Shown here in pieces: positions 2,978 to 45,249 of a stretch of DNA of 64,000 nt. Below the pieces are notes generated by a model that did not search any database, was not told the DNA's origin, and saw only the letters and a list, made by a program, of their open reading frames with translations. This stretch comes from a virus: positions 96,001 through 160,000 of IMG/VR virus record IMGVR_UViG_3300027668_002455; one strand, written 5' to 3'. The translations under genes and the position numbers were made by a program. The first letter of the stretch is position 1. Each line of letters opens with the position of its first letter.

Positions 2978-2994
2978 TCAATAAACACTAAAAT
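2967..2994 (+). promoter_or_regulatory. sigma70-type promoter, probably giving a leaderless mRNA
   Basis: TTGACT (2967-2972), 16 nt, TAAAAT (2989-2994). ATG at 3001 follows after 6 nt with no SD. Confidence 0.6.
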
Positions 2995-3000
2995 AAATAT

Positions 3001-20140: not shown

Positions 20141-20178
20141 TATTATAATAATAATTTTTCGAAAAATGACTAGAAAAA

Positions 20179-20184
20179 GTGTAA
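20179..20184 (+). promoter_or_regulatory. GTGTAA putative late-promoter motif upstream of the tail-tip operon
   Basis: Same hexamer lies about 10-30 nt upstream of many structural gene starts (see findings). Confidence 0.6.
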
Positions 20185-20205
20185 AACATAGAAGGGATAA
20201 GGTAT

Positions 20206-21949: not shown

Positions 21950-21950
21950 A

Positions 21951-22703
21951 ATGATACTCACAAAAAAAAATAAAGAGAAAATAAAAAAACATGCCCGCGA
22001 GGAAAGCCCCCGGGAATGTTGCGGGGTATTAGTGTCTACTAACAAGGGTACTGAAGCGCACCCGTGCATTAATACCTCTTCTTTGCCTGAGTCTAATTTT
22101 AGAGTTTCTCCACGAGATTATATAAAATTTTCTAATTATGGAAAAATAGAAGCCATCTATCATTCTCACCCGTCAGGGAAAGGAGGCTTCTCCTTGGGAG
22201 ATCAACAAAATTATACAGTAAATAAAGAAAGATTTATATTATATAATATAGAAAGTGATGAATTTTTTGATTCACTAGAAGAAGGGGCATCTCCTTACTT
22301 AGGGAGAGACTTCGAACTTGGAAAAACGGATTGTATAAATATAGTTATAGACTATTATTTAAATGAACTTAAAATAAAAAGCAACTACGACGAATGTTGG
22401 CCCGGACCAAAACACTATATTAAGAAAAACGGTTCCTCCAATGTAAAAAAAGTTGTTCGTTCAATTGAAAAAGTATGGAGTGTAGGACGTATTAAAAAAT
22501 CAGAAACTCCGCGCAAACATGATATTATTTTGTATAAGGCTGACGGCATAAGGTCGGAAGTAGGGCTGCATTTAGGCGTTTGTATAGGCCACGGAAAAAT
22601 TATTATTCAACCAGTTGATAAAAAATCATGCCTAATTGATTATGAAGGATTTCTAAAGAAAAAAACAATTATGATATTTAGACCAAATTCTGCAAATGAA
22701 TAA
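21951..22703 (+). CDS. Tail assembly protein, lambda gpK-like (JAB/MPN plus NlpC/P60)
   Basis: PRECCG, IYHSHP...S.GD, YLGRDFELGKTDC, HLGVCIG. Start at ATG 21951. Confidence 0.9.
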   Translation: MILTKKNKEKIKKHAREESPRECCGVLVSTNKGTEAHPCINTSSLPESNFRVSPRDYIKFSNYGKIEAIYHSHPSGKGGFSLGDQQNYTVNKERFILYNIESDEFFDSLEEGASPYLGRDFELGKTDCINIVIDYYLNELKIKSNYDECWPGPKHYIKKNGSSNVKKVVRSIEKVWSVGRIKKSETPRKHDIILYKADGIRSEVGLHLGVCIGHGKIIIQPVDKKSCLIDYEGFLKKKTIMIFRPNSANE

Positions 22704-29500: not shown

Positions 29501-32153
29501 TGGTTGCACTTCTCGTGGTCAAGCTATTAGGCTGGGTAAGTGGTTGGTTTATACAAATAATCTTGAAATAGAAAATGTATCTTTTAAAGCTGGCGTGGAG
29601 GCTAGTTATTTGCGTCCGGGAGATACCATATCCATATCTGATAATAACCGAAACCCATTCCGATGGGGAGGGCGAACAACAGTTATTTCAGGCGCAGACA
29701 CGACTACGAATACACCCGAAACTATTCAGTTAGATTCCTTTTTGGACCCCGAATACATTAATAATGATCAAGTATACAAGTTATCCCTTATAACCCCCGG
29801 ATGGAATTATGATAGTTACAATGTAAGCGGACTGAACTCCGACGACACCCCGGACATCAGGCGTAGTCAGGTGCAGGATTTTTTAATTAGCGGTAGCTTT
29901 ATTGATATGGGTTTAGATTTAGAAACTACTGCTCCTCCAAAATTTAGCACAATAAAATTAGGGGGTGCCACCGCAGTTCATTGGCCAGCATGGCTAGCTG
30001 GCGGTTTTGACGGCTCTACAAAAAATATTAACAGATCTGATTATACTGTAGGTAACAATCAGATTTGGACAATTAACCCAACAGGTAAAGAATTTGCCCT
30101 CGGAAGCTCTTTTGATGCATCTACTACTAAAGAGAAGCTTTTTCGAATAGTAGACGTAAAAGAAGATGAGAAACAAGTATTCTCGATTAAGGCTGTTGAA
30201 AATAACCCCATAAAATATGATAGAATAGAAGATGATTTATTATTCGAGCAGGCTGGGTTATATAACTCGCCCACACTAAAAGTTCCGGATGGACCCACGA
30301 GCCTCGCTCTTAAGATAGATCAATTTTCCCCAAATTCAGCACAAGTTAAATATTCTATTGGGGCCCCAACCAGCAAAAATGGTTTAGACGCTTATCAGGT
30401 ATTTGCAAAAGAAAATTCTCCTTTCTTTAGCATCTCAGACTTTACTGGAAATTACCCGGTGCTGTGGACACAGTATACCGGAGGATCACTAAGTGGACGG
30501 GCGTTTATAGATAATACCCCCCTTACAAAAGTAGTCTCTTCAGGTACCCAATATATCCCTGATAATGAACATAGAATCACCAGAATTCCAGCCCTAGCTC
30601 AGGCGCAAGGAATATTCAGACCTGAGCAATCAGGATCATGTCTATTTAAAGTATTTTCTGTGAATAACATGAATCAATACTCCTTGTCTTCTAGGTCCGA
30701 GAGGATAATCGTTCCCACGATTCACCCTATTGAAGATGTTGAGGTAGAAAACCTTGGACTATCAACCAATGAAGGTAGTCTTATAACGGCTGAAAAAAAG
30801 AAAAAACCAAGAATCGAATTTACTGGAGGTAGCCCAACTATACTTTGGACATCGACACTAGCTGCGTCCGGGTTTGTACCAAGCTCCTATGCGTACAGAC
30901 TTACGGTTAGAGAGCCTTCTGAAGGTACTCCCATTCCGAATCCAAACATTATCCATGAGATAACAGGATACAAGTCCGCTGACCGAGCGGCGACAAACTT
31001 AAGTGGATTTGCATTTACTTATGATTTAACAGGAAATTTATTTTATGCTTCTGGGAGGCGGACTTTTGACATCGTAGTAGAAGCTCATAATGAATATGGT
31101 GAAAGCTCTGCGGGCGGTAAATTTGGGTACAGCCTAGATCCAAGCGCACAGCCCTATACTGACAGTTCGGGGAATCTTATTACTGAAACTTATACAAAAT
31201 TAGATTCTCATTATACCAACATATATGGGTATGATATAGTCAGGCTAAATAATCCCCCCGTTCATGCCCACCTATCAAGCGACGGGGATGTTTGTGCTCC
31301 TAGTGATGATATTTGCACTACCCAGCAAATCACATTAGATAATAAAGTTAAAATGGTTTTTGAAAAAAATAGCCCCCAGAGTTTTAATAGGGATGTAGCT
31401 GGTGGATTTTTATACGTTTCCCCTCAGTATTTTGACGTTACTGGGGTACAGGGTGTTCTTCAAAATGACTTGCGCCATGACATTCAAAGAATAAAATTTG
31501 ATTATGCTCCGACCATTGAAGTTACCCCTACTGGGAATCTTTTACTAGATGGTTCGGCTTATATGGCTTACAGCCTTTATGATACCTTTGATCAAGAGAG
31601 AGACATCGCGTATCGTACTAATACAAAAAATAATCCAATCAAAAATAGAGGCTTTGATATGGCTAGAATGTTATCTGTAAGCTCTGTTCGTGAAGTTAAA
31701 CTCGACGACACAAACACAGTAAGAAAGATTATTAAACAGGGAAATCAAACCCTCACGTTTACCCTACCAGCCCAACGCCAATGGCACTTCCTTAAGATAG
31801 AGGGATCTCTCCAAGGGGAGAGGACCTTGTATACTAACGCTGAGTCTCAAAATGAGAAATGGCAGGAATTAAGTGAACTCAAAAATTGGAAAGTTTATGT
31901 TAATGACATCAGGGTAGATCAAGCTGAAAACTGGGCTTCTAATCCGCCCTCGGATAAAAACTTTGTATTTTGTAAAAATTCAAAATGGAATGGATCAACA
32001 GATTTATTGCCAGTATTTAATATACTTTCTAAAGGCGTTCCGCTTGAACAATTTAATAGAGACACAACCCTTACGGTTAAGCTAGAATTTGAAGGGACTA
32101 ATGTGGAATTTATTAACTTCAGCGCTGAAGCTGATTATGGAAGAAGGTATTAG
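23523..32153 (+). CDS. Central tail fibre/tip attachment protein, lambda gpJ-like, with large LamG/SPRY insertion
   Basis: DLIAEGPIEG, LYLNDTPV, VRVPSNYNP, WDGTWK...WTDNPAWCFLD, DKWTLYKIAQYCD, AFGCTSRGQAIRLGKW, LRPGD. Confidence 0.93.
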   Translation: MANAEPGIIVDGIKKKSISNIETIDLIAEGPIEGPVKQEYDYVGTLGATGWDTVNAQPEKNFLSSLYLNDTPVMDEQGLYNFQNIEVAITKGQPNGGIGNAQYFNDWDMHEAGVDYWKGNSPASFNINVSPDTEQNPEQYQNCELTKVINPNPRSVSTYRQKQAVLSLGSGYPERSSSAAYGEYSVKMPPSAALVVRDPVLGDDLYNFWPRQGGFVATEEEDYTPEEIIEAQNKQAFTFEAQVQGSDSNGPQVLAGKGNPNYPGGWVLMMVPSNEALDDDGNFYFKVTFINNNISLDTGHVMQFGVWSHVAVCLSERAVKIFINGVEQTGGGKNYPNIKLSSPTDLFLGRHPDGSTNPLRNVFLDNICMSNRAKYATNFTPGKVEPNDSTLFLIDGEDWRFEGEVPIIPQDDSIEINTMLRGTLVNDQRFVLQSNQILKDLNTAANATFYDFSCVNAKLLKNNTPQYDTTITDPGGGSTPSIYFDGTEGLANEGTLQNTSRMVDSLTPHAEVFLNPNYYNYTTNGSREWLFETWIYPASMSNGDEQFVAGLMRGDGTSAPWMLTTKHESGATKIYWSCVDITDESVKQLSGSISTASWNHVQVIYNGSYCRLFVDGIQVDTRGIIPSHETLNEDTRFCIARSHPNVIMDSFKGYIFNARILGGESIAPVETGNTSVWRKITAMGPSVPTAAFTSTTNCKLLLHSNTTDGSTTFTDSTGNYSIGRFGNAVNSTTKKKFGTSSIYFDGWNDGGELASSLYIDTTAGQLGVGVYTVEMWFNTSKSGLQYLISRNSSQQYGGLCISPESNYIQWGGNCTGPVLHASGVTINLNTWHHVAVVSNGKGNSAHIYFDGVQVGHTSSWDNWGYPTASHRITIGAQTYNGARPRYLFEGYIDEIRWSDVPRYSPQENYATLSSTDFAGCGVLGDGNLSFTDASGHCAARSTQTIAPGKGKIYFEVLCIDAASIWSSPPAIGVMGVGSPISRQLDASPSRWVRGNGYKYSNGSEIAAGYSTWSNGDIIGVEIDSTAGTFKFRINNGSWTTAFTDLGDTTWIPTIKIAETSIKLTVNFGQDYYFAGGKPSGQDTSQTQFYYAPPSDAVALSLLTVGQATVSSSRPGQVFALQSDAEDGTTEFTDLSSYRNAITANGSVENSTDVNNQAGNQESSVFFNKAAGTFLSSTAAKDGANFNNDDWTVELWVRPDHALGSTAECFMSCGGGTANWNSSTGHSWAITNYANKIYWQWNTTGSGFGEIYTSNTAVPANEWTHIAMVNQSGTKRLYIGGVQKGEDTTEKTTTSMPTMLSFGQTSVLNEGPFGGYINNASIQRDYCKYPDGATFLPSTARLVGYWSSGATWMNRQYGPGEGTNGQPYFTPNTSQFIGNITVANDGELVIQKDFIGTGKLLKVTRPEDSIEVERSGGLNVHVIQWGSGKPYPTYGTHYPWNDTINKNRPGIDESTWVPGDYGDLDGTSFSSHRGNYIRGHVANTPVVETEHLIKKRFFVQKVPLKGGENYTISCRSYRATNTSQGNAGFKFVAWLDSGSGPYAESSTFTPIAEKLSSVDESQNAMSYTFTAPPGTMESWIGVELLHGNSTLYFDKVTLESSKGFPLTKAKAIKERLRGPTVDGSGNPTGDNYSVDMFAKKYRIVNKHCVGAEVHLKIDALYNSVKSSGDLIDASINNIVVKFRPLIHNGTSAYKDAYDQQITGRADVPFLWVFDLDFKEVISSFSASDRNNFYGWEIKIYRTEPEVTVTNIKKSTTVDVLVEKYDTAAAYPNSSVIRQRFNAAYFNSIPSRSVDVRLLRVRVPSNYNPIKKTYDESQGPWDGTWKTQKYWTDNPAWCFLDMITNDRYGLGRYIPLDGFDKWTLYKIAQYCDVIVPDGAGGMEPRLTLNTIITSREDAFKVINDMASVFRGLLYYAAGQIYAIQDSKKDPIYTFTNANAQDGNFTYSNKSRKERYNVGIIRYNDKTNFYKPAIEYVEDLAGIRANGVREQEITAFGCTSRGQAIRLGKWLVYTNNLEIENVSFKAGVEASYLRPGDTISISDNNRNPFRWGGRTTVISGADTTTNTPETIQLDSFLDPEYINNDQVYKLSLITPGWNYDSYNVSGLNSDDTPDIRRSQVQDFLISGSFIDMGLDLETTAPPKFSTIKLGGATAVHWPAWLAGGFDGSTKNINRSDYTVGNNQIWTINPTGKEFALGSSFDASTTKEKLFRIVDVKEDEKQVFSIKAVENNPIKYDRIEDDLLFEQAGLYNSPTLKVPDGPTSLALKIDQFSPNSAQVKYSIGAPTSKNGLDAYQVFAKENSPFFSISDFTGNYPVLWTQYTGGSLSGRAFIDNTPLTKVVSSGTQYIPDNEHRITRIPALAQAQGIFRPEQSGSCLFKVFSVNNMNQYSLSSRSERIIVPTIHPIEDVEVENLGLSTNEGSLITAEKKKKPRIEFTGGSPTILWTSTLAASGFVPSSYAYRLTVREPSEGTPIPNPNIIHEITGYKSADRAATNLSGFAFTYDLTGNLFYASGRRTFDIVVEAHNEYGESSAGGKFGYSLDPSAQPYTDSSGNLITETYTKLDSHYTNIYGYDIVRLNNPPVHAHLSSDGDVCAPSDDICTTQQITLDNKVKMVFEKNSPQSFNRDVAGGFLYVSPQYFDVTGVQGVLQNDLRHDIQRIKFDYAPTIEVTPTGNLLLDGSAYMAYSLYDTFDQERDIAYRTNTKNNPIKNRGFDMARMLSVSSVREVKLDDTNTVRKIIKQGNQTLTFTLPAQRQWHFLKIEGSLQGERTLYTNAESQNEKWQELSELKNWKVYVNDIRVDQAENWASNPPSDKNFVFCKNSKWNGSTDLLPVFNILSKGVPLEQFNRDTTLTVKLEFEGTNVEFINFSAEADYGRRY

Positions 32154-35100
32154 CTTCTCTTTTCGCTGTAGAGAAGACCACCGGGGCGTTTTTGGTAAAC
32201 AATCTCCTGTACCACTGCGCCTTTAATTCTAACGCCAAGCTCTTTATTGCGCTCGTTTTCCTCTAATCCGCCCTGTGTATTTTGATCCTTTTCGCCGAGT
32301 GCTGTCCTTCCGTCGTCACTACCGCCACCCTCATTGGTAACATTAACATTGATAGTAAAGTCATTATTAACTGAGGAAGCGCTTCCGCCGCCAGAAGAAG
32401 GTGTCTCACCCCCGCCTCGTGGACCTACGTAGCCGCCCTCGGCAAAGTGCTGTACTTCTCCTTTATTTAATTTGTTCATGAAACCCATACCATACAAGTC
32501 TACGGTTTCCTTGGGAACCACCCACTCCCCGGCTGTTAGCATGGCGGGAACCGTGTCCCGGCCCCTTGTGTGTGCAGGTCCCCCAGCAGCCACGTGCATC
32601 GTATCGTGATCCTGCCTAAATAACTTCAGCCTTGACGCATCGATCATTGTCTTCGGTCTCGTAATTCCGCCACCGCCGTCACCTTTCGTTAAGTTACTGG
32701 TTGCGCCCAAGATATTCACATCGCCTAAGCCGCCCTTTTTGCCCGTGCCCCCAGCTTTCTTCGATGGTGTCGTCAAGGGGCTGCCATAATTCGCTCCCGG
32801 TTGAAAACCTAACAATTGTTGTAGAAAGTTTTGTTTGGGAGTTCTGTCCTTTGTGAATTGCTTAAGCATAGCTTGATCCTGCATCTGCTCCATTACTCTA
32901 TCAGCCCGGGCAACTTTATCCGACCCGTACACGCCTCCGCCGGGTGCCGTAGCAGGAAACCCTGTAGTCTTAGCCATCTGCATGTCCCGCACGCCTTGTG
33001 CCTTGTACTGCTGGACTTCTATCTGCGCAGGCGTACCCCCAATCGAACTGACGGGCGCACTGCTTATCGCCTGTGCCCAACCGCTACTGCCGGGTTTAAT
33101 GACTTTTCCGCCTTTCGTTAGGACCTCGCCCGACTTGAGTGGCTTGCCCGTTTTCGGGTTCTTCGCCTTGGGCGAGGAACCCATTGACTGCATTCCAGCC
33201 TGAATGCCCACCATTGCAATTTGCATAACTGCGCTTTGAATGATCTTCCTTCTTTGGGTCTTGTATGCCATCATGGCATTTTTCTTCATTTCATCATCGG
33301 CGGCTTTGTCTTTGAGGTATTGATCAAGGGTAGCTTCTCTAGAGAATTTATATGCATTTTGCGGATTGCTGCTATCCATCTGTCCGAGGGCCGACAGCCT
33401 AGAATCAACATTAAACGACCCCGCCGTAGGTTTCTTTGGGTCATTCCAGTCGTAGGTGTTTTGAAGGTTACTCCGCGCAGAATCAGCCGACCCACCAGCT
33501 GCAAATTTATTAACTCTTCCTGCATTTAGATCGTTTAGATAATTAGTTCCATATTTGCGAGCAGATGATTCTTTTATGACATACTCTCCACGTCCCAATC
33601 TGGCGGGAATGTCATCTACACCACCCTTACCGCCCGACACTAGACCACCCTTCTGGAAAGTCTGGACACCCCGTATGCCGCCTACGACATGACCGCCTGT
33701 GGCAGCACCCGGAGCACCGGGTTGAGGTATTAAAGCTTTTCCAACAGCATTAAAAGCAGTATTAACGAGGCTACTAATGGAGGTGCTGAGCATATCAGCA
33801 GCTATATCCTGCATTACCTTGGCCATCGCCTCCCTGAAGGTCATGGTGCCATTAATGGCAGCAGCAAAAGCGTCTTTTACGCCATCCTTGAATGCCTTAC
33901 CATTCCGATCAATCATTTTGATAAAATCTTTTTGGGCCGCATTTTTTTCTAGATGAGTTAGAGCCATAAGGGTGCTTTTAAGTGCGCTGTTAAAATCCCC
34001 CGCGCTCATGTCACCCTCCATCATGGTTTCAGCTAGCGCCCTCATGCCTGACTCGTACTCCGCCTGTGCGATGGTTCCGTCAGCGAGTGCTAGATTAAGT
34101 CTTTCTTGCTCCATTGGAGCACGCGCTTTCGCCATTCTGATCTCAGCTTGATTGGCATTAATCTGCCCATCTTTTAGCTGATTAAGAATATCGACCCTCT
34201 TTTTATCTAATTCAATCGAGTCGTTTTCAAGTTTATTAAGATTTTGTTTAGTCAGTGCCATCCCCATTGCGCGCCGAGCACCAATATCCGTATTGTCAGC
34301 CTCCATACCAGCGTTCATTGCACCAAGTTTGGTGTTAAGACTCGCGCCAAACGCGCCCTTTACTTCGCCCTCCCGCTTATCCCGCATTCGGCCAGCGTCC
34401 TTATAGATATTGAGGGGGTTGTACACGTCATCATTACTAAGGTTGTCCAGTGTCGTCTGTACATTGTCATAAGTGCTGCCGCCTTTGAGCATTTTTGCAT
34501 TGTTTCGGTCAACTTCATCCTGTTTTAGTTTTTTCGGATCATAGGATCCCAGCATACCTAATTCGCGATTTAGTTTTGCTGTTGCGTGTGTCGCTTCTTT
34601 TGTCTTCTCACTAAGTAGGAAGTTAGCAGTCGCTTGGGTGATTATCCCGTTGGAAACTTTTTGCGCAATTTCTGTTCTGTATAGATCAAGTTCGTTATTT
34701 TTCTCAATAGCAGCGGCTAAGTCCCCAGTAACTTTATAGTATTCCACGGCAGCTGCTTTTTGTGACTCTATGACTTGTGCGTTGGCAGCATTAAGACTAC
34801 CGATTAAAGCCGAACCAAGTTTTTTAGTTACTTCGCTGCTCCTCATCGCGCGTACCGCCTCGTTACCCACATCTCCTAAGGCTGCGACATAGCCCTTTAA
34901 ACTTTCCCCCGCCTGCCTAGTTCCGTCTTCTACGCCTTCTTGCAAAAATTTAGTAATATCGCTTTTAAATTGATCTGGGTCTAAAAAGCCTTTTTCGCGT
35001 TTGGATTTTTTCACTGCCTCTTGTGCTTTTCTCATCGCCTCAGCCAACTCTGTGATGTCGTCACCCGCGATTTCTCCATCCGCAGCGACACTCCTTAGTA

Positions 35101-38100
35101 CAGTACCCAAGTTGCTCATCGCGTTCGTAGCCACTTCACCCTCAATACCATATTTCGACATCTGTAACCTTAGGTCCTGCATCGAGGAGGAGGTCTCAAG
35201 GATTACGTCTCTTGCATCGATACTACCCTTAATTGCCGCAGACTCTTTATCCCTAGCCTCAGAAAGTTTGAGCAATTGGTCGATTTGTTTGGTTAAATCA
35301 ACCTCGGTCTTTTTACCCTTAGCATCATTGACTAGCGCATCCATGGTTTTCGAAATACCATTTTGTACTTCTTCAAAATTTTTCCTGCCAGCCGTGAATG
35401 ACGACATATTAATGGTATCTTGGAAGAGCATTATTTCTTTTCGAGCTTGCTTAAGCTTCTCTGCCATAAGTGCAGGGTCTATATCTTTTAAATCAAGATC
35501 TTGTCCTTTCTGATTTTTAAACAATGAGTCACTCAGCTCTGTCATGAATTTTTCAACTTTTTCCCGTTCTTTGTCGGGTAAAGATCTATTCGACCCACTA
35601 AAATCTTGGACAGCCTTCGCTATATTCTCCATATTAGCCGCACGACTTGGAGCAGCGATTGTCTCGACCTTGTCCCGAGCTCTTCCCGCTTGAACCGGGT
35701 TCAGTGGATTACCGTCCCCAAAGGGTGCGGACGTCTCACCCAAGGATATCATCTGTGCCTTAGTCTTTATCTCTTCAAGTGAGTCTTTAAGTTGTTTCAT
35801 ATCTGCGGCAGAAAGTACACCATCATCATCAGTAAGCCTCGTAAGTAGTTCGTTCATGTCATAAAAGCCATCAACAATCATTTGGTCACCTTCTTTTGTG
35901 CCTGCGAAACCCTTAAGATTTGACATCTCGCCAAACGCCTTGCTGATCATCGTCGTCATCGACCCTACATTTTCCCTGCTCTTCTCCATGCCCCCCTTAT
36001 CCAGCTGGTTGAGCGCTGTAGTCAACTTACCTAGACTAGTTGTATTGTTCTGAAGTTCGGTTTTTAGCTGACCGATTTCTTTATTATATTGTGTGATCGC
36101 CTTCTCCTGCGAGGCCTTCGCCCTTTCCAGATTCGCAATACTCTTCTCGGCAGCTACTCTCTTTTTGGTGGCTTCATCCGCAGCGCGCTGCCAAGTTGAT
36201 TCATTCGCCAACATAGCATCATACTCTCGAGTGTTCTCACGCTTGTTACTCGGAAAATCGGGCTTTCCCGCTCTGAAGGCCTCCTCGTACATTGGTGTAC
36301 CGTATTTGTGGCCCGCCGGCAGTGCTTTGCCCTCCTCGGGTGTTCGCCCCCAGCGACCAGTGTCCTTGTCACCGATCCAAGTCCCTCCTCTGGCATTCTT
36401 TTCAAAAGCTTCGCGGGCTGCCCTTGTTGTTTCTTTATTTTTCAGTGAAGTTTCTTCGTTTTGTTTCAAAAGAGCCAACCCCTCAATAGTTTTAGTAAGG
36501 GCGGCACTGGTTCTGGCAAAGGCTTCTGCCGCGACGCCGCGGGCGTGCTCGCGCCCTTTTAAAGTTTGCGCGATTTTGTCCCCTTCGGCTCCCCCTCCAG
36601 CATATTGTTTTTGTAATCTTTGAAGTTCCTTTGACTGTTCACTCCCGGCTGAGAAAGCTGCCATTGGATTACCCAAACCCCTTCTCGCTGCCCAATTGGC
36701 TCTGGGTTGCCCGGGGATGCTACCGCCCCCACCAAAGCCCGGGCCGCGATCACCACCGACGCCGCCCTGCGCGCCAATGGGCAGCCCGGTGACAGGGTCA
36801 GTTCCCCCTCCCCCTTCTTTACCAGCATCCTGCCAATTTGCAATAAACACCTTTAAGTTGTTTTTGCCATCAAATGAGAATCTCTCGTTTTGAGAAAACA
36901 GATCTTTTATCTCTCTGTCAGGTTTAATTAAATTTTTAGCTTGAGTTCTTGAAATGTCTTCTAGTTTTTTGTTGCTGAAGATTTGCTCCGACGACCCACC
37001 GAGCATTTTATCTAAGAATAACCTATGATTCTTTTGAAGTTGCTGGGTTAAGGGTTCAACATAGGCATTAGCGGGGTTATTGCCACCGGGGTCGGTAAGG
37101 CTTCTGAGCATTTTAAGATTGGCTATCATGCCGCTCGTTTGTAAATCCCTGCCCGAATCCCCAAGCATATTTCCTTGTTTATAATTTAATTTGTTAGATT
37201 CCCAGTCTTTAAAAGCTTTGATGGGGGCTCCGGCAGCGCCCCCGATACCACCTGCAAAACTTATTTGCTGAGCTAATTTCAACTGAGCCGTAGCAGCTAC
37301 TTTCATCGCTTTCGCGTAGTCCATCTCTGCCTTCTGCTTAGCCCTCATCACTGTAATTTCTCGAGATGTTGCGGAAGTGAGGTCCTCTAACGCTTCCCGA
37401 TGCTTCTTCATATTAGCGACAACAACTCTATTCTCCGCACCACCGGCGGGGCCCTTTGCCATTTTAATGGCATCAGCGATAGCCTTGTCTGCCCCTGATA
37501 AATCTGCATTTCTTATTGCTTCAAAAAATGCTGGGCCAAACTTTTTATTTATTTGGTTCTGAAAGTCTTTACCCATGAAGCCGCCCTTCTGAGGAGTAAG
37601 CTTTTCAGTCCCCCTTACCTTACTAAGAAGATGTGTTTCGAGATCCGACATTAGAGCTTCTTGTTTTTTAACCTGAAGGTCATTTAGCTCGTTCGCATGT
37701 TTTATTCTGAGCCTGCGCTCTTCTGAAGCGGCGTTAAATTCTATTAGCGTTCGTTCTGAAGCTGTTTTAGAAAGATTATCTACTAGAGTCTTAGTTCCAA
37801 GGTCAAACATCTTAAGAGTCTGATCTTCGAAAAGTTTAGTTAGTGATTTTTTTAATGTTATTTGATTTTTAAGACCCTTAAGGTTGTTTTTGAATTTTTG
37901 AATTTCGTCATGAAGAAGACTAGTTTCCTTCGCAAATGCATCCTCTTCTTTAATCAAGCCCTCTTCCATAGTGGCCCGCCGCTTTAAAATTGGAAGTAAT
38001 TTTCCATTGATGATCATGTGCAATCTCATGAAGTCATCTTCATCTAGATTAACTTTTTGATCCATTTCCTTGAGTGATTCGAGAAGATCCTTCTGCTCTG

Positions 38101-41100
38101 CTGAAAGACCGTCAAGGGAAGAGAGTTGTGCCACCACCTTCCTATTGTAGGCTTGCGCTTCATCTTGGGAGATATTATACTCATCTGAGAGACTCTTACC
38201 ACTGTCCTTCAAATTAGTAAACTCCTTCAACATTTCTCTAGCCTTCTTCTGACCCACACCATCCAGCATACTTGCAAACCCCTGTGCCGCCTTAGCCATG
38301 TTTTCTGCAGAGGTATCCTTTGAATATAGCATACCTTGATTTTGAGCGAAGGCATCTAGTGCCGTTGCTGAAGCCCCTGCCCCTTGGGCCATTTGATTAA
38401 ATCTCGATGCGGCACTTTTTATAGCTGCATTAAGCTCTCGAATATCTTCTACACTCGTATTAACATCTTGGATTTTTGAAATAACCTCGGCCTTGGTGTT
38501 TAACTTATCTTTGCCAACAGTAACACCACCACTCCTCTTCATTGTGTCGCCAATGCCGGCGAGATTCAGGCTTCTGATTATGTCATTCTTTGCAGCCGCG
38601 ACCCCAGCCGCGTCCCCTTTACCAAGGGCTTTACCAAACGCAGAGGTTGCCTCACTGGCTTTGGACATGTGTTCATTAAGATTTTTAAAAGACTCGGCAG
38701 ATTTTTTTGCAGCCTCTTGTACTCGTTTACGGGCAGCCGCTCCCTTTGCGTCATAAGCCCCCTGCATTAGCTTATTAACCCCGATTCCAACCGCCGCTAC
38801 TGCGAGAGCAATTGCAACCGCTGGGTTAGCCGCTGCTGCGGCATACGCAGCGCGCCCGCCACGTGCAATTCCGCCGCCCATCCTAGCTCCCAGACCCTTC
38901 GTGCCACCCCCCTTATTAGCTTTAAAACGCATATCCGGCTTTCCGGACTTAGTAAGAGGCCCACTGAAGGCACTTTTTCCCATACTGACTTTCGCAGAGG
39001 CGATGACGCTTTTAGTCCATACAGCCAACCCTGCGATGCTGGCGCTAATCCCTGTACCAAGTTTACTAAGAGCGCCCAATATTCCCCCGTAGCTTTGGGT
39101 AGCCATTGCAATCATGGGATAATACATCGCAAAAGAGGCCGATAAATCCAGTACACTGCTACTAAATGTAGAGACACCCTCATTTGTCTCTTTTAGTCTA
39201 TCACTCATGACGCTCAGTTGACTACCGACCATCATCATGCCCATTGACATGCCCATGCCCATATCATCGCCGCCACCTTGTTTTTTCTGTGCAAAGTTAG
39301 GAATATAACCATCCGCTTTTCCCTGTCTTTGGATGCTTTTCATGGTCGCACCGGAAGCTAGATGCATATTAATTGCATTACCTAGTGAACCCTCTTTGGT
39401 ATTGTAAACCCCTGTACCGCCGTTCAAGCGATCATCATGACCCACGCGTACCTGATCTCTTCTTACTCCAGCGCGGTCTTCTCTATCTATAGCTGCTCCA
39501 AGCCCTCCAAGTGCGAAGTTTGGAATAAAACCTCCCGCCTTGGTTTTTTTGGACAGGAGCCCTGTATCGGCTCTTGCAGACGTATTGTTTGTCGGCCTAG
39601 AAATTAAGCTCTCAAACTCAATCTTATTCCGACGAAGCCCGTCAACAACAACTTCCTTTGGCATACTGCCTACCATACCTTGAAGCTGTTTTAAGCTTCT
39701 AAATTTTTTCTCTGGCCCCACTTCAGGCATTGAGAAGATGCCAGATGTGACCATGTTCGGTCTCATTCTGTGTCGAAGCTGGGGAAACGCAACTTTACTC
39801 ATCCCTTCGAAAGGTGACATGCGGCCTAATAATTCAGATTTTCTTTTCTCAGGTGACTGCGAAGGGAGACCGGCCCAAAGTTGATTGATTAACTGGCTTG
39901 AATATATTGGTTTGCCTGTCTCTTGGCTGACATTAGCTAACTCTTTAAATTGTTGAAATCCCCTTCCTTTTTGTTTTGACATGTTATATTGAATCTGAAG
40001 GGCCTCCTGCCCGGCAAGCCCTGAAGAACGCGAGTGCATCTTGCCCGATGTGTAATCCATCCTCCCACCCTCATCACCACCAATATACTTCATGCCCCCG
40101 CGCTCGCCATCATCCCAACGCCGCAAGCCCGGTGCTAGCTTGTTCTTATTGAGCGTCTTAGCTAGGTGAGCCCTCTGTTTCTCCGCCCAAGGGTTACCTC
40201 TTGGGGCCATAAAATTAGGAACAAAACCGAGTGCCGAAATTGCCTTCTGCATTCTAGTCGCCGTACTCAGCTTTTGTTTTTGAGTCATTTTCCGCGCACC
40301 AGACGAACCGGGTCCAGCCTTCAGATTTTTTCCAAGCCCGGGTAACTCTGTCGCGAACCTCGCCCCCAGCCCCATATCATCAAGAAGACCCTCGGTATAT
40401 GCCTTATTTATAAGACTTTGCTTGGCCTCACCCGTAGCTGACCTTTTTGCATCAGCCTTCTTTAATTGGGAACCGAATTTAAAAGTTTTTATAAATTTAG
40501 AGTTTGCTTTCTCCCCTCTCCCCTCTTCAAAATCAAACGGAGCCTTAAAGCTTCCGCCCGCCTCCGATAGCTCATCTAGCTGCCCGGGGGTATTGGTGGC
40601 AATCCTTGCTAGATTTTCAAATATGTCTCCCTCCGTACCGGGGGATAAAAAGGCATTTGATTTTTTAAGTGAATCTACTAGCCCTTTCTTGTCTTTAAGT
40701 CTGCCTTTATGGTTAAGTCCTGTATGCTTAAGAAACTGCTCAGTTAAACTTACCATTGGCCCTGCCATGTGATCTGAGATTTGTTGAGAAAACTTTTTCG
40801 AAGTTTCATCTCCTTTTTTTGGCATACTTTGAAGAGAGCTTATCTGCAAACCTGTAAATTTTATCGAATCATTTGATAAATCATTACTCTTCATTAGGTC
40901 CGAAAGTGCAGGTATTTTCTTAATCGGCAGTTGAGCGTGGTCTGACTTATTCGGCGTTCCATAATAAGATAAAAGACCTATTGCTCCCTGCGTATTATAT
41001 GTATGTATATTTCGGGGATTTTTGGGCTCTCTGCCAGCCTTAGATTCTTTTATATTTTTTTGTGTACCATAACTATAACCCTGACCCGACGCCACATGAC

Positions 41101-43153
41101 TAGGGTCGAGTTTTCCCTCATTTATTTTTCGAGTAATAGTGGATTGAGACATAGACCCTTTGCCCATTATGCCTGCCCCTAGCGATGTAAGTTTTAAGTT
41201 AGCAAAATTCGGAACAAATCCACCCGCAGAATTATAAGGGTCATACCCATGTACACCCTTAAATGAGTCTCTGTAATTATTGCCCGCAGAAGACGTTCGT
41301 GGTGGCATAATGCCCGGCTGTTGTAATCCCGGAAATTTCTTTATTTCTTCATTACCATTATAAGTAACTTTTCCTACCCCCGGAATGGTGGCTTCTTTTA
41401 TTTTGCCCGCTTGGTAGCCGCCAGCTTTCGCGAGCCTTTTTTCTTGAACTTCTTGACTAAAGTTAGGAACAAATCCAGAAGCAGCGCCCATATTGAAGCT
41501 GGGAATAAAACCGCCTGCCTTGGGTTTTTTGCCCCCCGTTCTCTTTGCGCCCCCCTGCATTGCTAATACCGCTGGCGCAGCCTTTTGTGCAGCCAGCGTA
41601 AGTTTTTCCATTTCTGCTCTAGATTCTTTAATTTTCTGAGCCAACACACGAGCGACTGCCACCATCCCCTCTTCTGAAGCTGTGGCTTGATTAATAAGCG
41701 CGGGGCGTTGAGCTAAAATATTTTGAATTATATTTTGTGTACTTGCTAGTTTTTGGGAAGCAGTTTCCATTCCCATGAAACCCGCAGCAGCGTCTTTGAC
41801 AAATACTGCTAACTTAGCTCCTATTTTGACAAGCACAAAACCAAGCAATGCTAGCCCCGGACCGCTTATGATTTTCCCCATGCCCTCATACACAGCGGTA
41901 CCAACTGTTTCACCCAAACCAAAAAAGTTTTTAGGGCTTATCAAATCAGCAAAGCCATTTACCATTTTAAGAATTCTATCTAAAGCGGGTTTAACAGTAA
42001 GGGCACCTACCTCTGTTGCAAACTTGGTTAAATTAACCATCGTTTTATTTACCATACCTTCAGTGGTAGAAGTCAAAAGTCCCATGCGTTGAGTAGCTTC
42101 ATTAGTAGTTTCATTGGCTACCATTAATGCTTTTTGATATTTTCCTGTCTCATTAGCTAGTTCAGGCAGAACAGCTTTTAAAACGTTTACCTGAAAAACA
42201 CCCGCTAACATTTCAGAAGAGGTAGCTCTAAGTGATGGAGCTAGTGAACCATAAACTTTTGCATAGTTTTCTAAAACTTTCATAGCAGGAAGTAGCTCCC
42301 CGCTTGTTTTTCGTACAGCCACGCCAAGAGATTCTAGTTGACGCAGGGTTTCTGGTCTCTGAATCCTCGTAAAAATAGTTTTAAAGCTATTACCAATAAC
42401 CGCACCACCCCGAGCAGTCTTTTCTTGAGCGGTGGTTACAATCGAAATCAATTCCTCGAAACTAACATTCGCACTATTAGCCGCAGCACCCGTCCTTTTG
42501 ATAGCTTCTGCCAAATCACCAGAGCTAACAGCAAATTTAGCATCTACCTGAGCCATCTTATTAACAATCTGCGTTGAGTTACCAGCAGCTTTACCAAAGG
42601 TGTTTATGGCGGCGGTTAGTGATTCCGTTGCATTTTTAACATCCATACCACCTAATTTTGCAAGGGTCATGGCGGCGGTTGTTCTTTTTAGTGACTGTTC
42701 AACATTTAAACCCTGCCTAGCAAATTCTTCCGCAGATTCAGCAACCTCATAAAAACTATGCCCCGTGGCTTTGGCAGCCTTGAAAAGTCCATTTGAAAAT
42801 CTTTCGAAATCTTTACCGGTGGCATTCAGAAGGACTTGAATATTTGTGAGTTGCTGCTCTACTTTGATAGTCGTCTTAACGAGCTCTGACATCGCTTTTT
42901 GAACAGCAAAAATAGCACCAGCCGAAGCACCGAATGCAATGACACGAGCGTTAGAAGCTTCTAGTGATTTATTGAACTCATTTGCCGCCCCAGTAATACG
43001 TCCAAGGGGCTGTGTAAAATTCTTGGCAACAATGGGGTTTTTATTGAAGGACTGAGTTTTATTGAAAAGGGCTTGAAGCTGCTGCTCCGCCTTCCGCATT
43101 TCTGAAGCGGGGACGTTGATTCCAATATCAATTGTTGCACTATTCCTAGCCAT
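32150..43153 (-). CDS. Tape measure protein (TP901-type core, 3667 aa)
   Basis: Core EVAESAEEFARQG...AVSSGDLAEAIKRTG...GGAVIGNSFKTIFTRI. Long Ala/Lys-rich helices and hydrophobic segments. C-terminal DDIPARLGRGEYVI and DTVPAMLTAGEWVV motifs. Confidence 0.93.
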   Translation of the reverse strand: MARNSATIDIGINVPASEMRKAEQQLQALFNKTQSFNKNPIVAKNFTQPLGRITGAANEFNKSLEASNARVIAFGASAGAIFAVQKAMSELVKTTIKVEQQLTNIQVLLNATGKDFERFSNGLFKAAKATGHSFYEVAESAEEFARQGLNVEQSLKRTTAAMTLAKLGGMDVKNATESLTAAINTFGKAAGNSTQIVNKMAQVDAKFAVSSGDLAEAIKRTGAAANSANVSFEELISIVTTAQEKTARGGAVIGNSFKTIFTRIQRPETLRQLESLGVAVRKTSGELLPAMKVLENYAKVYGSLAPSLRATSSEMLAGVFQVNVLKAVLPELANETGKYQKALMVANETTNEATQRMGLLTSTTEGMVNKTMVNLTKFATEVGALTVKPALDRILKMVNGFADLISPKNFFGLGETVGTAVYEGMGKIISGPGLALLGFVLVKIGAKLAVFVKDAAAGFMGMETASQKLASTQNIIQNILAQRPALINQATASEEGMVAVARVLAQKIKESRAEMEKLTLAAQKAAPAVLAMQGGAKRTGGKKPKAGGFIPSFNMGAASGFVPNFSQEVQEKRLAKAGGYQAGKIKEATIPGVGKVTYNGNEEIKKFPGLQQPGIMPPRTSSAGNNYRDSFKGVHGYDPYNSAGGFVPNFANLKLTSLGAGIMGKGSMSQSTITRKINEGKLDPSHVASGQGYSYGTQKNIKESKAGREPKNPRNIHTYNTQGAIGLLSYYGTPNKSDHAQLPIKKIPALSDLMKSNDLSNDSIKFTGLQISSLQSMPKKGDETSKKFSQQISDHMAGPMVSLTEQFLKHTGLNHKGRLKDKKGLVDSLKKSNAFLSPGTEGDIFENLARIATNTPGQLDELSEAGGSFKAPFDFEEGRGEKANSKFIKTFKFGSQLKKADAKRSATGEAKQSLINKAYTEGLLDDMGLGARFATELPGLGKNLKAGPGSSGARKMTQKQKLSTATRMQKAISALGFVPNFMAPRGNPWAEKQRAHLAKTLNKNKLAPGLRRWDDGERGGMKYIGGDEGGRMDYTSGKMHSRSSGLAGQEALQIQYNMSKQKGRGFQQFKELANVSQETGKPIYSSQLINQLWAGLPSQSPEKRKSELLGRMSPFEGMSKVAFPQLRHRMRPNMVTSGIFSMPEVGPEKKFRSLKQLQGMVGSMPKEVVVDGLRRNKIEFESLISRPTNNTSARADTGLLSKKTKAGGFIPNFALGGLGAAIDREDRAGVRRDQVRVGHDDRLNGGTGVYNTKEGSLGNAINMHLASGATMKSIQRQGKADGYIPNFAQKKQGGGDDMGMGMSMGMMMVGSQLSVMSDRLKETNEGVSTFSSSVLDLSASFAMYYPMIAMATQSYGGILGALSKLGTGISASIAGLAVWTKSVIASAKVSMGKSAFSGPLTKSGKPDMRFKANKGGGTKGLGARMGGGIARGGRAAYAAAAANPAVAIALAVAAVGIGVNKLMQGAYDAKGAAARKRVQEAAKKSAESFKNLNEHMSKASEATSAFGKALGKGDAAGVAAAKNDIIRSLNLAGIGDTMKRSGGVTVGKDKLNTKAEVISKIQDVNTSVEDIRELNAAIKSAASRFNQMAQGAGASATALDAFAQNQGMLYSKDTSAENMAKAAQGFASMLDGVGQKKAREMLKEFTNLKDSGKSLSDEYNISQDEAQAYNRKVVAQLSSLDGLSAEQKDLLESLKEMDQKVNLDEDDFMRLHMIINGKLLPILKRRATMEEGLIKEEDAFAKETSLLHDEIQKFKNNLKGLKNQITLKKSLTKLFEDQTLKMFDLGTKTLVDNLSKTASERTLIEFNAASEERRLRIKHANELNDLQVKKQEALMSDLETHLLSKVRGTEKLTPQKGGFMGKDFQNQINKKFGPAFFEAIRNADLSGADKAIADAIKMAKGPAGGAENRVVVANMKKHREALEDLTSATSREITVMRAKQKAEMDYAKAMKVAATAQLKLAQQISFAGGIGGAAGAPIKAFKDWESNKLNYKQGNMLGDSGRDLQTSGMIANLKMLRSLTDPGGNNPANAYVEPLTQQLQKNHRLFLDKMLGGSSEQIFSNKKLEDISRTQAKNLIKPDREIKDLFSQNERFSFDGKNNLKVFIANWQDAGKEGGGGTDPVTGLPIGAQGGVGGDRGPGFGGGGSIPGQPRANWAARRGLGNPMAAFSAGSEQSKELQRLQKQYAGGGAEGDKIAQTLKGREHARGVAAEAFARTSAALTKTIEGLALLKQNEETSLKNKETTRAAREAFEKNARGGTWIGDKDTGRWGRTPEEGKALPAGHKYGTPMYEEAFRAGKPDFPSNKRENTREYDAMLANESTWQRAADEATKKRVAAEKSIANLERAKASQEKAITQYNKEIGQLKTELQNNTTSLGKLTTALNQLDKGGMEKSRENVGSMTTMISKAFGEMSNLKGFAGTKEGDQMIVDGFYDMNELLTRLTDDDGVLSAADMKQLKDSLEEIKTKAQMISLGETSAPFGDGNPLNPVQAGRARDKVETIAAPSRAANMENIAKAVQDFSGSNRSLPDKEREKVEKFMTELSDSLFKNQKGQDLDLKDIDPALMAEKLKQARKEIMLFQDTINMSSFTAGRKNFEEVQNGISKTMDALVNDAKGKKTEVDLTKQIDQLLKLSEARDKESAAIKGSIDARDVILETSSSMQDLRLQMSKYGIEGEVATNAMSNLGTVLRSVAADGEIAGDDITELAEAMRKAQEAVKKSKREKGFLDPDQFKSDITKFLQEGVEDGTRQAGESLKGYVAALGDVGNEAVRAMRSSEVTKKLGSALIGSLNAANAQVIESQKAAAVEYYKVTGDLAAAIEKNNELDLYRTEIAQKVSNGIITQATANFLLSEKTKEATHATAKLNRELGMLGSYDPKKLKQDEVDRNNAKMLKGGSTYDNVQTTLDNLSNDDVYNPLNIYKDAGRMRDKREGEVKGAFGASLNTKLGAMNAGMEADNTDIGARRAMGMALTKQNLNKLENDSIELDKKRVDILNQLKDGQINANQAEIRMAKARAPMEQERLNLALADGTIAQAEYESGMRALAETMMEGDMSAGDFNSALKSTLMALTHLEKNAAQKDFIKMIDRNGKAFKDGVKDAFAAAINGTMTFREAMAKVMQDIAADMLSTSISSLVNTAFNAVGKALIPQPGAPGAATGGHVVGGIRGVQTFQKGGLVSGGKGGVDDIPARLGRGEYVIKESSARKYGTNYLNDLNAGRVNKFAAGGSADSARSNLQNTYDWNDPKKPTAGSFNVDSRLSALGQMDSSNPQNAYKFSREATLDQYLKDKAADDEMKKNAMMAYKTQRRKIIQSAVMQIAMVGIQAGMQSMGSSPKAKNPKTGKPLKSGEVLTKGGKVIKPGSSGWAQAISSAPVSSIGGTPAQIEVQQYKAQGVRDMQMAKTTGFPATAPGGGVYGSDKVARADRVMEQMQDQAMLKQFTKDRTPKQNFLQQLLGFQPGANYGSPLTTPSKKAGGTGKKGGLGDVNILGATSNLTKGDGGGGITRPKTMIDASRLKLFRQDHDTMHVAAGGPAHTRGRDTVPAMLTAGEWVVPKETVDLYGMGFMNKLNKGEVQHFAEGGYVGPRGGGETPSSGGGSASSVNNDFTINVNVTNEGGGSDDGRTALGEKDQNTQGGLEENERNKELGVRIKGAVVQEIVYQKRPGGLLYSEKRS

Positions 43154-43191: not shown

Positions 43192-44199
43192 CTATTCGCC
43201 GTGTAATTTTATTAAGTCATCCATGTCCAAATGACCGCCCTTTTCAGCAGCAGCTTTGGCTAAGGATACGCCTCCATCCGGTGCACCAGATGTAAGACCC
43301 ATGCGCTTCATGTCTTCCTGTGTGGCACCCACTACGGTAGTAGCCGAAGATTCGTCCATTTTTTGCTTTATTTTGTCACTGTTTTTACTGACATTGAATA
43401 AGTCAATTAGCTTATCTGGATCTGACATCGTTTCTGGGTCTGGGTCATGTTTAAGCTCAGAAAGTATATGTTTAAAGTATTTACCGAAACTAAAGAGTTC
43501 GTTTTGATTAAATGTTAATTCCACAACAGGTCTTCCATAAAAAATAAATGGATTGTCCTCACATAAATAAAAAGAATTAAGAAAAAATCCCGAAAGAGCA
43601 ACCCTTTTAAGGTTGTGGTCAGAATACATCTCAGAAAGGACGTTGTAATTAGCAATTAATAAAAGGATATCTTTTTCATGAATTTCCTCGAAAACTTCTG
43701 CACTAAAAAGTGGCACCTTGCATTCTGCGTCTTTATAAGAGGTTGTATATATAAAAAATTCATTTACTTTTTTTGTAGCATAAGACTCTACCGTGTATCC
43801 GACTAACTCGAGTTTCTCTGAAGCGATCTCTGCATGTTCTTGTTGTACATCATTAATCTGCTTCTGAATAGAGTCCATATCAGCCTGCAATATGAATTTA
43901 GATTTTGTTATCTTTAAGGCTGATGCTTGTTGTAAGCACTCTTTTATTCGAGTATCTTTTTCAGAAGACCACAAACCTTCCTTTTCTAGATCTTTTAGTT
44001 TTTCCTCTTCAGTTGGAAGACCCTTACTTTTTGCATGATTTTCATATTCTTTTTTTCTTTCATCAATCTCCTCTGAAGAGAAGAGATCTATATGTTTTAG
44101 ATAAAAGGTGCCAAATTTTTCTAAATAAGATTTATTATACCCACGGATTACATCCATGTATACTCCTCTTAATAGATGTGGTTCAATTTTTTTAGACAT
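43192..44199 (-). CDS. Tail assembly chaperone, long form (GT-like)
   Basis: Directly upstream of the tape measure. Paralogous to 44248..45249 (GLPT...G.WS; TVESYATKK) with an extra C-terminal domain. Confidence 0.6.
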   Translation of the reverse strand: MSKKIEPHLLRGVYMDVIRGYNKSYLEKFGTFYLKHIDLFSSEEIDERKKEYENHAKSKGLPTEEEKLKDLEKEGLWSSEKDTRIKECLQQASALKITKSKFILQADMDSIQKQINDVQQEHAEIASEKLELVGYTVESYATKKVNEFFIYTTSYKDAECKVPLFSAEVFEEIHEKDILLLIANYNVLSEMYSDHNLKRVALSGFFLNSFYLCEDNPFIFYGRPVVELTFNQNELFSFGKYFKHILSELKHDPDPETMSDPDKLIDLFNVSKNSDKIKQKMDESSATTVVGATQEDMKRMGLTSGAPDGGVSLAKAAAEKGGHLDMDDLIKLHGE

Positions 44200-44247: not shown

Positions 44248-45249
44248 CTATGCATTGTTATCAGAACTTTCTTGTGAATCTTCGGTTGACCCCGAGTCTT
44301 CCACGGGAGGCTCTTCCACGGGAGGCTCTTCCACGGGAGGCTCTTCCACGGGAGGCTCTTCTACGGGGGGCTCTTCTACGGGGACTTTCTTTTTTGCCTT
44401 TTTCTTTTTAGCAGTTTTCTTTTGAGGGGGATCTGCCTCTTCAGTAGATTCTTCTTTTTTATCTCCAGCTTGCGCGAGTGCTTCCATTGAGGCATCCTCC
44501 AGTCCTGAAGCTTCTAGTTCTCCCAAAAGCTTCTTAAACTCTTCTTCGGTTTGAGCATTACCCACGTACCAATAGCTTACATAATAAATCAACTTCCTAA
44601 GAAGCTCTTCATAAAAAGGATCATCCGACTCCTCCAAGGAGTCATAGGAGCTTAGTCTTTCCTCATGAATATCACCCGGAAAAACGTTTATAGGATTTTC
44701 TCCATTGTCATCTGTCAGATAAGCGAGATTTAACACCCACCATAAAATGGTTTTATTGCGTGCTCGATTTTCTGCAGTTTGTTCAAATAGAGATGCCTGA
44801 GCTAATTCAAAATCTTGAATTTTTCTTTTAAGAATACCACCCTCTTTCACAAAGGTAGCAAATTGACCCTTTTGCTCTTCGCTTCGGTTGTCAGACTTAA
44901 CTGCTGAAAGCCTCTCTATTTCTCTTTGATTTTCAAATAACTCTAGATAAAGATCAGCGTATTCCTCTTTATCGTCATCACTCATCACTCCGCCATCATT
45001 AGAAAATCTTTTAGCTAAAAGAGCTCTTGTCAAAAGCCCAGCTTTAATGCCTTTGGAAAGAATTACGCCATAGTAAAGCTCCGCGTCATCAAACATGATT
45101 CGATTGGGTTTACGCAAGATAACGTGTTGCTCTACCTCAACTTCTACCTCTTTGCTGACAGTGACCTCGTTGCCTTCTGAGTCTTTGCTTTTTTCTTCTA
45201 CTTTCGTAGTTGAACTTTTTTTCAGAACAAACTGATATAATCTTTTCAT
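44248..45249 (-). CDS. Tail assembly chaperone, short form (G-like) with acidic repeat tail
   Basis: Between tail tube and tape measure. Helical and acidic, with motifs GLLT and TAENRARNK. Confidence 0.6.
   Translation of the reverse strand: MKRLYQFVLKKSSTTKVEEKSKDSEGNEVTVSKEVEVEVEQHVILRKPNRIMFDDAELYYGVILSKGIKAGLLTRALLAKRFSNDGGVMSDDDKEEYADLYLELFENQREIERLSAVKSDNRSEEQKGQFATFVKEGGILKRKIQDFELAQASLFEQTAENRARNKTILWWVLNLAYLTDDNGENPINVFPGDIHEERLSSYDSLEESDDPFYEELLRKLIYYVSYWYVGNAQTEEEFKKLLGELEASGLEDASMEALAQAGDKKEESTEEADPPQKKTAKKKKAKKKVPVEEPPVEEPPVEEPPVEEPPVEEPPVEDSGSTEDSQESSDNNA
44297..44383. repeat. 15-bp tandem repeat (about 5.8 copies) encoding (PVEEP)n
   Basis: Four exact TCTTCCACGGGAGGC units plus two variant units. 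Confidence 0.95.

Follow-up and report, generated by a model that had tools for sequence, protein, structure and literature searches.

The closest published concept to the locus studied here is that of polyvalent proteins, giant, highly mosaic proteins of phages and conjugative elements which string together many unrelated domains and which presumably enter with the DNA and are then processed into units (Iyer, Burroughs, Anand, de Souza, Aravind 2017, PMC5512222). Tape measures have 0 occurrences in that paper and it contains no conserved separator peptide (PMC5512222). The locus lies in a 64,000-nucleotide stretch of viral DNA (IMG/VR record IMGVR_UViG_3300027668_002455, positions 96,001 to 160,000; hereafter the window, with positions counted from its first letter). 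It encodes a tape measure protein of 3667 amino acids (aa), the N-terminal third of which carries several modules fenced off by copies of one short junction peptide, G[FY][IV]P[NS]F. The likeness to polyvalent proteins lies in the apparently unrelated modules within one giant protein. The recognisable families are limited to an SNase and a borderline match (M18 and F6, see below), both in relatives and none in the window. The polyvalent hallmark domains (zincin-like MPTase, SNF2, methylases, ART, ParB) were not detected by Pfam in the tape measure or in about 45 modules of its relatives.

Tape measures of the TP901-1 family (Pfam: PF10145) share with the window protein the N-terminal PhageMin_Tail domain, hydrophobic helices, a long Ala/Lys/Glu-rich rod, C-terminal modules and tail-gene neighbours. 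We know of no characterised member in which a motif-fenced array of modules separates the N-terminal domain from the rod. Extra functional domains inside the ruler protein, which is the first to reach the host envelope, have precedents: the tape measure of mycobacteriophage TM4 reportedly has a peptidoglycan-hydrolase motif, and pb2 of phage T5 is said to have muralytic and fusogenic activities. These are cases of a single recognisable cell-wall enzyme and no repeated junction peptide, whereas the window family has 3 to about 20 modules, mostly of no known family, with a fixed separator and combinatorial swapping. Proteolytic processing of tape measures also has a precedent, in lambda, where cleavage matures gpH to gpH*, and in the cleavage of T5 pb2. 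There it is a single C-terminal cut during tail assembly, whereas the candidate sites here are six internal junctions in the N-terminal third.

Polymorphic toxins also carry demarcating motifs, such as VENN in CdiA and PxxxxDPxGL in Rhs proteins, and phage MuF-toxin fusions belong to the same kind of system. In these toxins, as in the window family, a short conserved motif marks the exchange of variable modules on a constant delivery scaffold. They differ in having one C-terminal toxin with an adjacent immunity gene, whereas the window protein carries multiple modules, placed internally within its N-terminal third, and its gene is followed not by an immunity-like gene but by a convergent gene for a gpJ-like tail tip protein. 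Head-packaged proteins that are delivered into the cell include the T4 internal proteins, P1 Dar and the N4 RNA polymerase; to our knowledge, delivery of pre-made proteins has not been described as a modular system in tape measures. Our literature search gave no account of the junction peptide or of a motif-fenced tape measure architecture, and the motif strings returned only unrelated human-proteomics papers. Thus we found no published description of a conserved separator peptide combined with combinatorial module exchange in tape measures.

Junction peptides in a giant tape measure protein

The tape measure open reading frame (ORF) spans 32150..43153 on the minus strand (P0001, translated from 32153-43153), and all of its features given below are on this strand. 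The three features that mark TP901-type tape measures were all found: a PhageMin_Tail domain above the gathering score, a tail gene module, and a long rod with hydrophobic segments and C-terminal modules. PhageMin_Tail (Pfam: PF10145) matches aa 127-314 (42212..42775) with an E-value of 2e-28 and 100.1 bits against a gathering cut-off of 33.2, and Pfam found nothing else in the entire 3667-aa protein at E-values up to 1. PHROG tape measure families cover aa 1-545 and 3100-3667, and residues 540-3100 had no significant PHROG match. The rod (aa ~1500-3140) is rich in Ala, Lys, Glu and Leu. Together with the C-terminal tape measure modules (aa 3141-3667) it occupies 32153..38656, and neither part has a single copy of the junction motif. 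Because about 740 of the 3667 residues are not rod, the inference of tail length from tape measure length is affected. PF10145, the PHROG matches, the tail-gene neighbours and a lambda-like operon identify the ORF, at the level of sequence, as the TP901-type tape measure protein of an uncultured marine siphophage of the lambda-tip type with a genome of ~176 kb. The longest contig of the cluster has 175,849 bp.

A regex scan places the motif at aa 548, 560, 645, 976, 1208 and 1282 of the protein. In this order, motifs 1 to 6 read GFIPSF (aa 548-553, 41495..41512), GFVPNF (aa 560-565, 41459..41476), GFVPNF (aa 645-650, 41204..41221), GFVPNF (aa 976-981, 40211..40228), GFIPNF (aa 1208-1213, 39515..39532) and GYIPNF (aa 1282-1287, 39293..39310). 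A first-pass annotation of the window had interpreted the gene as a polyprotein loaded with exchangeable cassettes. The six sites that it listed, each with an Ala two residues before the Gly, match exactly by translation and regex, with the Ala present in 6/6 motifs. The segments between the motifs measure 6, 79, 325, 226 and 68 aa, close to its estimates of about 80, 325, 225 and 68 aa, which lacked the 6-aa gap between motifs 1 and 2. From the composition of the ORF 0.0002 copies are expected by chance, and at least one copy appeared in 5 out of 20000 shuffles. The core [FYW][IVL]PNF is absent elsewhere in the six frames of the window.

With the relatives included, the extended junction peptide is [KA][AS]xG[FLHY][IV]PN[FY][AS]; in the window the fencing peptide has the narrower form [KA][AS]xG[FY][IV]PN[F][AS]. 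The logo of 679 distinct instances reads [KA][AS]xG-F(80%)-[VI]-P-N(94%)-F(92%)-[AS], with [AS] at position -2 in 86%; its G and P are invariant by construction, being part of the search pattern. Variants of the form HG[VI]PN[FY] and G[MKA][IV]PNY occur among the relatives, so the most constant core is [IV]PN[FY]. In both AlphaFold models built from deep alignments, the motifs sit in tails with a predicted local distance difference test score (pLDDT) below 50 beside the modelled domain. The junction peptides occupy low-confidence, probably exposed linkers.

The six window copies and 16 copies from four relatives use all four Gly codons, all four Pro codons, both Asn codons and both Phe codons. 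As the copies vary in synonymous codons, selection acts on the peptide and not on the DNA. The same variation argues against a recombinase site at the DNA level, and it makes one form of the recombination boundary proposed by the first-pass annotation, a pure DNA recombination site, unlikely. Furthermore, the copies of one protein can vary in concert: the sequence is PNY in 6/7 copies of the relative L006 and PNL in 3/3 copies of P0230, the only two such lineages seen. These concerted variants suggest a single reader which co-evolves with the peptide.

The modules and their exchange between relatives

The array of the window consists of the modules F1, F2, F12 and F3, in this order. F1 (aa 566-644, 79 aa, 41222..41458), represented by 115 segments from 120 homologues, and F3 (aa 1214-1281, 68 aa, 39311..39514), represented by 83 segments (alignment A4), are its first and last bookends. 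F2 (aa 651-975, 325 aa, 40229..41203), present in 105 homologues (alignment A1), is the commonest central module. F12 (aa 982-1207, 226 aa, 39533..40210), with 18 relatives, is a rare accessory.

A search with aa 530-1300 of the tape measure against 5.8 billion proteins gave 480 matches of 2016-6418 aa and 94 shorter ones, nearly all of which are PF10145 tape measures from metagenomes. In IMG/VR 250 loci have an F1 relative. The number of motif copies per protein ranges from about 3 to 21, and the first junction is often a tandem double site in the relatives. We defined modules by splitting homologues at the motif and clustering the pieces, in sets gathered with F1 or the window cassette as query. 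Splitting 120 homologues gave 35 module families in 21 architectures, and 87 loci gave 53 module families (26 of them singletons) in 33 architectures. The motif is therefore not a peculiarity of the window protein: it brackets modules family-wide, and the segments vary in number and identity between constant flanks, as the first-pass annotation had predicted.

F1 is almost always first and F3 almost always last, as near-constant bookends, and the usual central module is F2-like. Members of the class 'F1|F2' have F3 as well, there behind the variant motif HG[VI]PN[FY]. Modules of more than 50 unrelated families come and go, or replace one another, between the two bookends. Module orders such as M1|M4|M2, M1|M4|M8|M2 and M1|M4|M12|M2 differ by single modules, and the accessory module M8 occurs in different backbones, after M4, M5 or M28. 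In the window array F12 is an addition, and a 173-kb relative (L002) adds both F12 and F5. An array of about 20 modules is found on one NCBI protein. The description of the segments as swappable thus fits the extra modules, which vary, and does not fit the two short modules and usually the 325-aa module, which are conserved.

The exchange can be followed at the DNA level in two pairs of close relatives. Along most of the gene, the DNA identity between the window and L002 is 91-99%. The two differ at motif 3 by one insertion of 249 nt in L002, which is exactly module F5 plus one motif (83 aa). The insert is flanked at both ends by the 14-nt direct repeat TTTGTTCCGAATTT, which occurs only once in the window. 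In an independent pair, L081 and L066 (79% identical), the difference is a module of 100 aa together with its motif, and here the homology switches inside the motif codons. The motif-coding DNA provides 14-18 nt of microhomology at the crossovers. The motif as a recombination boundary is thus borne out by two whole-module indels between close relatives with the crossover inside motif-coding DNA. In a third pair, L067 and L038, the edges of the indel are within 2 aa of motifs at the protein level only; it was rejected as a DNA-level crossover, since the flanks are too diverged to place one. Divergent pairs were left out of the indel count because gap positions in global alignments are unreliable.

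Besides the F5 indel, there are three mosaic patches with 60-70% nucleotide identity between the window and L002, at aa ~780-978, ~1290-1500 and ~2200-2450 (about 40220-40815, 38654-39286 and 35804-36556). The patch in F2 has one edge at motif 4 (aa 976) and the other away from the motifs. The patches indicate mosaic recombination within the tape measure beyond the exchange of whole modules. With breakpoints at the motifs and elsewhere, the motif is a preferred breakpoint and not the sole one.

Two further observations concern assemblies of this gene. In several marine studies the ends of short-read Logan unitig contigs often coincide with motif-coding DNA or lie close to it (39486, 39531, 39561, 40228, 41231, 41500), and these ends may reflect strain-level branch points at the joints. 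On L002, the contig of P0002, the tape measure appears as separate ORFs of 2522 and 1201 aa around 13569-13663, a candidate split or an assembly error.

The long module families show no mutual relation by hhalign. For the two short modules, which had been described as similar, the pattern E..AG...G.G.YN..E is present in both family consensuses; as profiles, F1 and F3 are only weakly similar, with a local pattern of 33 columns (hhalign P 0.0025, probability 12%). A complex prediction for F1 and F3, aimed at a possible pairing of the bookends with the cargo looped out, reached 0.17, where the mark is 0.32, and speaks neither for nor against such a pairing. By the predicted folds and profiles, the modules appear to be unrelated to each other and to fold autonomously. 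The segments are also unlike tape measure helix, as had been proposed: AlphaFold models the 325-aa segment as an alpha/beta domain and the 79-aa segment as a small alpha-beta4-alpha unit. The latter, F1, has a pLDDT of 65 and a mean column identity of 59% in its family, and fold searches returned nothing usable (best Z 2.4).

The F2 model has a pLDDT of 70 and a predicted template modelling score (pTM) of 0.59, with a pLDDT of about 57-61 around D874. E846, D874, K903 and K917 do not vary across 105 homologues, and the conservation of D901 is at least 90%. The near-invariant strings GxIFE ... PFDFEE ... ADAK satisfy the residue order E ... D ... (D/E)xK. As a sequence pattern this hints at a PD-(D/E)xK nuclease, an assignment which we consider doubtful and for which neither fold nor profile searches gave a match to the restriction-endonuclease-like alpha-beta-beta-beta-alpha-beta core or to a member family. 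F2 is unmatched in the PDB (Foldseek and profile search), BFVD, the ESM Atlas (shape and features) and NCBIfam, none of its 105 members has a match in Pfam, and the best hit of the wide VIA search (Z 5.3) is confined to one helical hairpin. For the earlier impression that both long segments look enzymatic, there was no match in Pfam, NCBIfam, PHROG, the PDB or fold searches, and so what is left of it is the invariant E/D/K pattern in F2.

F12 has no Pfam match and only 18 matches among 1.84 billion representatives. It is found between two motifs in giant tape measures with at least two motifs, and its relatives include four motif-less, stand-alone proteins on short phage-like contigs, so the module can exist as an independent gene. 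Two other apparent stand-alone modules, P0173 and P0176, were rejected as split genes, as they lie on L001, where the long-read tape measure is shattered. In this 178.6-kb contig indel errors have most likely split the gene into its more than 15 small ORFs, and the resulting short 'proteins' mimic stand-alone modules.

A Pfam scan of about 45 modules from relatives placed one family, M18, above threshold as a staphylococcal-type nuclease. M18 matches SNase (Pfam: PF00565) with 28.0 and 28.3 bits against a cut-off of 21 in two of its three members. It also matches a PDB thermonuclease (E-value 6e-4, residues 13-140 of 143), and the catalytic pattern DGD ... RL ... DAxE ... YGR is intact. The module is bracketed by motifs in all three relatives (L013:11018-11632, L031:4278-4868 and L037:10283-10837) and is not part of the window. 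Module F6 of the relatives has a borderline cytidylyltransferase-related match, and the relative P0086 has a glucosaminidase (Pfam: PF01832) outside the array.

Proposed cargo delivery and competing explanations

Two hydrophobic, membrane-helix-like segments flank the array of the window in Kyte-Doolittle plots, one at aa 424-457 (41783..41884, peak 2.25), about 95 aa before motif 1, and one after the array at aa 1435-1466 (38756..38851, peak 2.01). The upstream segment is found in 110 out of 128 related tape measures, and no hydrophobic segment was found by Kyte-Doolittle inside the array of the window or of these 128 relatives. Tape measure hydrophobic helices have been proposed to enter the host membrane. 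If the flanking helices do so here, the array between them would be exposed on one side in the form of a loop.

We put the probability at roughly 55% that the protein is a tape measure with a motif-fenced module array which is shuffled at its joints and carried as cargo, and whose junction peptide is read in trans. In it the PhageMin_Tail domain and the first hydrophobic helix are followed by F1, F2, F12 and F3 as beads on a string. At infection the array would reach the envelope or the cytoplasm of the host as a polyvalent string of cargo, since tape measures are the first to leave the tail and membrane-helix-like segments flank the array of this phage on both sides. One trans-acting factor would read the junction peptide, and the role we favour for the peptide, although on its own it is less likely than not, is that of a processing site, at which the string would be cut so that the modules act separately. 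As a more specific and rather tentative version, the peptide could be a portable signal for processing or translocation, by analogy a plug-and-play injector: any domain flanked by it would be loaded into the tail, would leave it before the DNA and would be set free in the host.

Several results weigh against this explanation as a whole. No protease domain was recognised in the tape measure or in the scanned ORFs of the window (64 kb of the ~176 kb), and no peptidase match was found by Pfam in about 45 modules of relatives. The JAB-domain gpK-like gene at 21900-22703 is, we presume, the usual lambda-type tail gene. Cuts at the junctions would separate the conserved N-terminal domain from the rod, and we know of no TP901-type tape measure in which these two are severed. 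The downstream hydrophobic segment passes the threshold in only 51 out of 128 relatives, and mosaic breakpoints between the window and L002 also fall away from the motifs. None of the window modules matches a known family or fold, and no catalytic fold was recognised in them. The proposal that the segments are effector cargo thus has one module family of relatives in its favour, a genuine SNase-type nuclease, and is not helped by the window modules themselves. Moreover, with F1 or the cassette as query, the searches inflate how often F1, F2 and F3 are seen. The family has no known cultured member, and a tblastn search with the window array and with the array of a typical relative gave no match in 50,697 deposited phage genomes.

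A stricter form of the processing idea, which was the main reading of the first-pass annotation and which we regard as possible and not more, is that of a true polyprotein. The peptide would then be the site of a protease or of self-cleavage, and a cut at every junction would free the modules as effectors in the host. The arrangement speaks for it: n+1 separators surround n modules, each copy is strongly conserved, the first junction often has a tandem double site, the sites lie in low-confidence and probably exposed linkers, and the lineage-wide variants fit a co-evolving reader. The near-invariant Asn followed by Phe resembles the Asn-dependent autocleavage sites of some capsid proteins. For polyvalent virion proteins a need for processing has been argued (Iyer et al. 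2017, PMC5512222). Against these stand the lack of a detected protease in or near the gene and the disconnection of the N-terminal domain from the rod which cleavage would cause, and docking motifs just as typically contain a Pro-Asn turn between aromatics.

Docking is almost as likely as a processing site, and is itself still less likely than not. As a short linear motif, the peptide would fit, without a cut, into a pocket of a hub protein of the host or of a tail component such as the terminator, the lumen of the tube or an assembly chaperone. In this way it would hold or order the bulky modules, which would stay tethered as a loop between the two membrane-helix-like segments; this second half we likewise hold to be unlikely. 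The aromatic-x-Pro-Asn-aromatic shape, the low-confidence context, the multivalency and the concerted variants, which fit a single reader, are what docking would lead one to expect. So are the hydrophobic segments that flank the array in the window phage and its nearer relatives, and the entire upstream tail module, which is conserved alongside the motif-bearing tape measures. However, the analysis identified no partner, docking sites that are redundant should have decayed further than observed, and docking leaves the need for a site at every module boundary unexplained.

The crossovers in motif-coding DNA, and the fact that most modules have no recognisable enzymatic family, could also be explained by a passive joint, which we judge improbable both as a mechanism and as a function. 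The peptide would be a folding insulator or hinge, of which each mobile module brings its own copy, and microhomology would drive the shuffling. There would be neither a trans-acting reader nor a cargo function, and the modules would tune tail assembly or length. However, the peptide is near-invariant while adjacent modules drop to 28% column identity, and this conservation is not a by-product of DNA homology because synonymous codons vary freely. The SNase module with its intact catalytic pattern is also hard to explain as a spacer. Chance, a low-complexity repeat or an assembly artefact can be set aside almost entirely, given the chance expectation above, a motif kept in hundreds of homologues and the difference-free recovery of the stretch in contigs of several marine studies independent of each other.

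If the array is cargo, as we favour, a long non-contractile tail would bring changeable pre-made proteins into the cell before phage gene expression. If, on the more tentative version above, the peptide is a portable signal, a polymorphic effector-delivery system, including nucleases, would reside inside a structural gene of marine siphophages. The junction peptide is a sequence handle for finding cargo modules, mostly protein dark matter, in metagenomes. It defines exact module boundaries for expression and allows processing tests with peptides or point mutants.

Genomic setting and occurrence

The same-strand genes upstream of the tape measure are a tail module which is kept in the relatives. 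Directly upstream are the ORFs 43192-44199 and 44248-45249, both on the minus strand, which have no BLASTP similarity to each other (best E 2.4) and are both conserved in the relatives L002, L004 and L006. The C-terminal tape measure module itself (GG.V.G ... D.[IV]PA.L..GE.V ... FA.GG) occurs twice, at aa ~3150-3230 and ~3530-3580 (about 33464-33706 and 32414-32566), with PHROG matches in two stretches.

A plus-strand operon faces the tape measure, with gpL-like (Pfam: PF05100), JAB gpK-like, gpI-sized and gpJ-like genes, the last encoding 2876 aa with PF13550 and Laminin_G_3. This gpJ-like tail tip protein (23523-32153, plus strand) has four Laminin_G_3 stretches and a SPRY domain besides PF13550. 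Its gene converges on the tape measure, and the stop codons of the two overlap at 32150-32153. A second giant ORF of 2893 aa (9477-18158, minus strand) has Laminin_G_3 domains as well; its neighbours are a fibre-like protein of 575 aa and a glycosyltransferase of family 2 (19358-20215).

The stretch is found repeatedly and almost unchanged in marine metagenomes, with at least half of its words in eleven runs from about eight studies, and difference-free pieces were recovered from four runs of four studies. A scan of species genomes gave seven contigs only, all from metagenome-assembled genomes and labelled Flavobacteriales, 'Proteobacteria' or Neomarinimicrobiota. These are probably binned phage contigs, and their taxon labels therefore do not settle the host. 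Finally, the ORF 56849-58039 (minus strand, 396 aa) has a Tubulin/FtsZ GTPase domain (Pfam: PF00091, E-value 9e-11, 42.8 bits against 33), here in a genome of the siphophage type.

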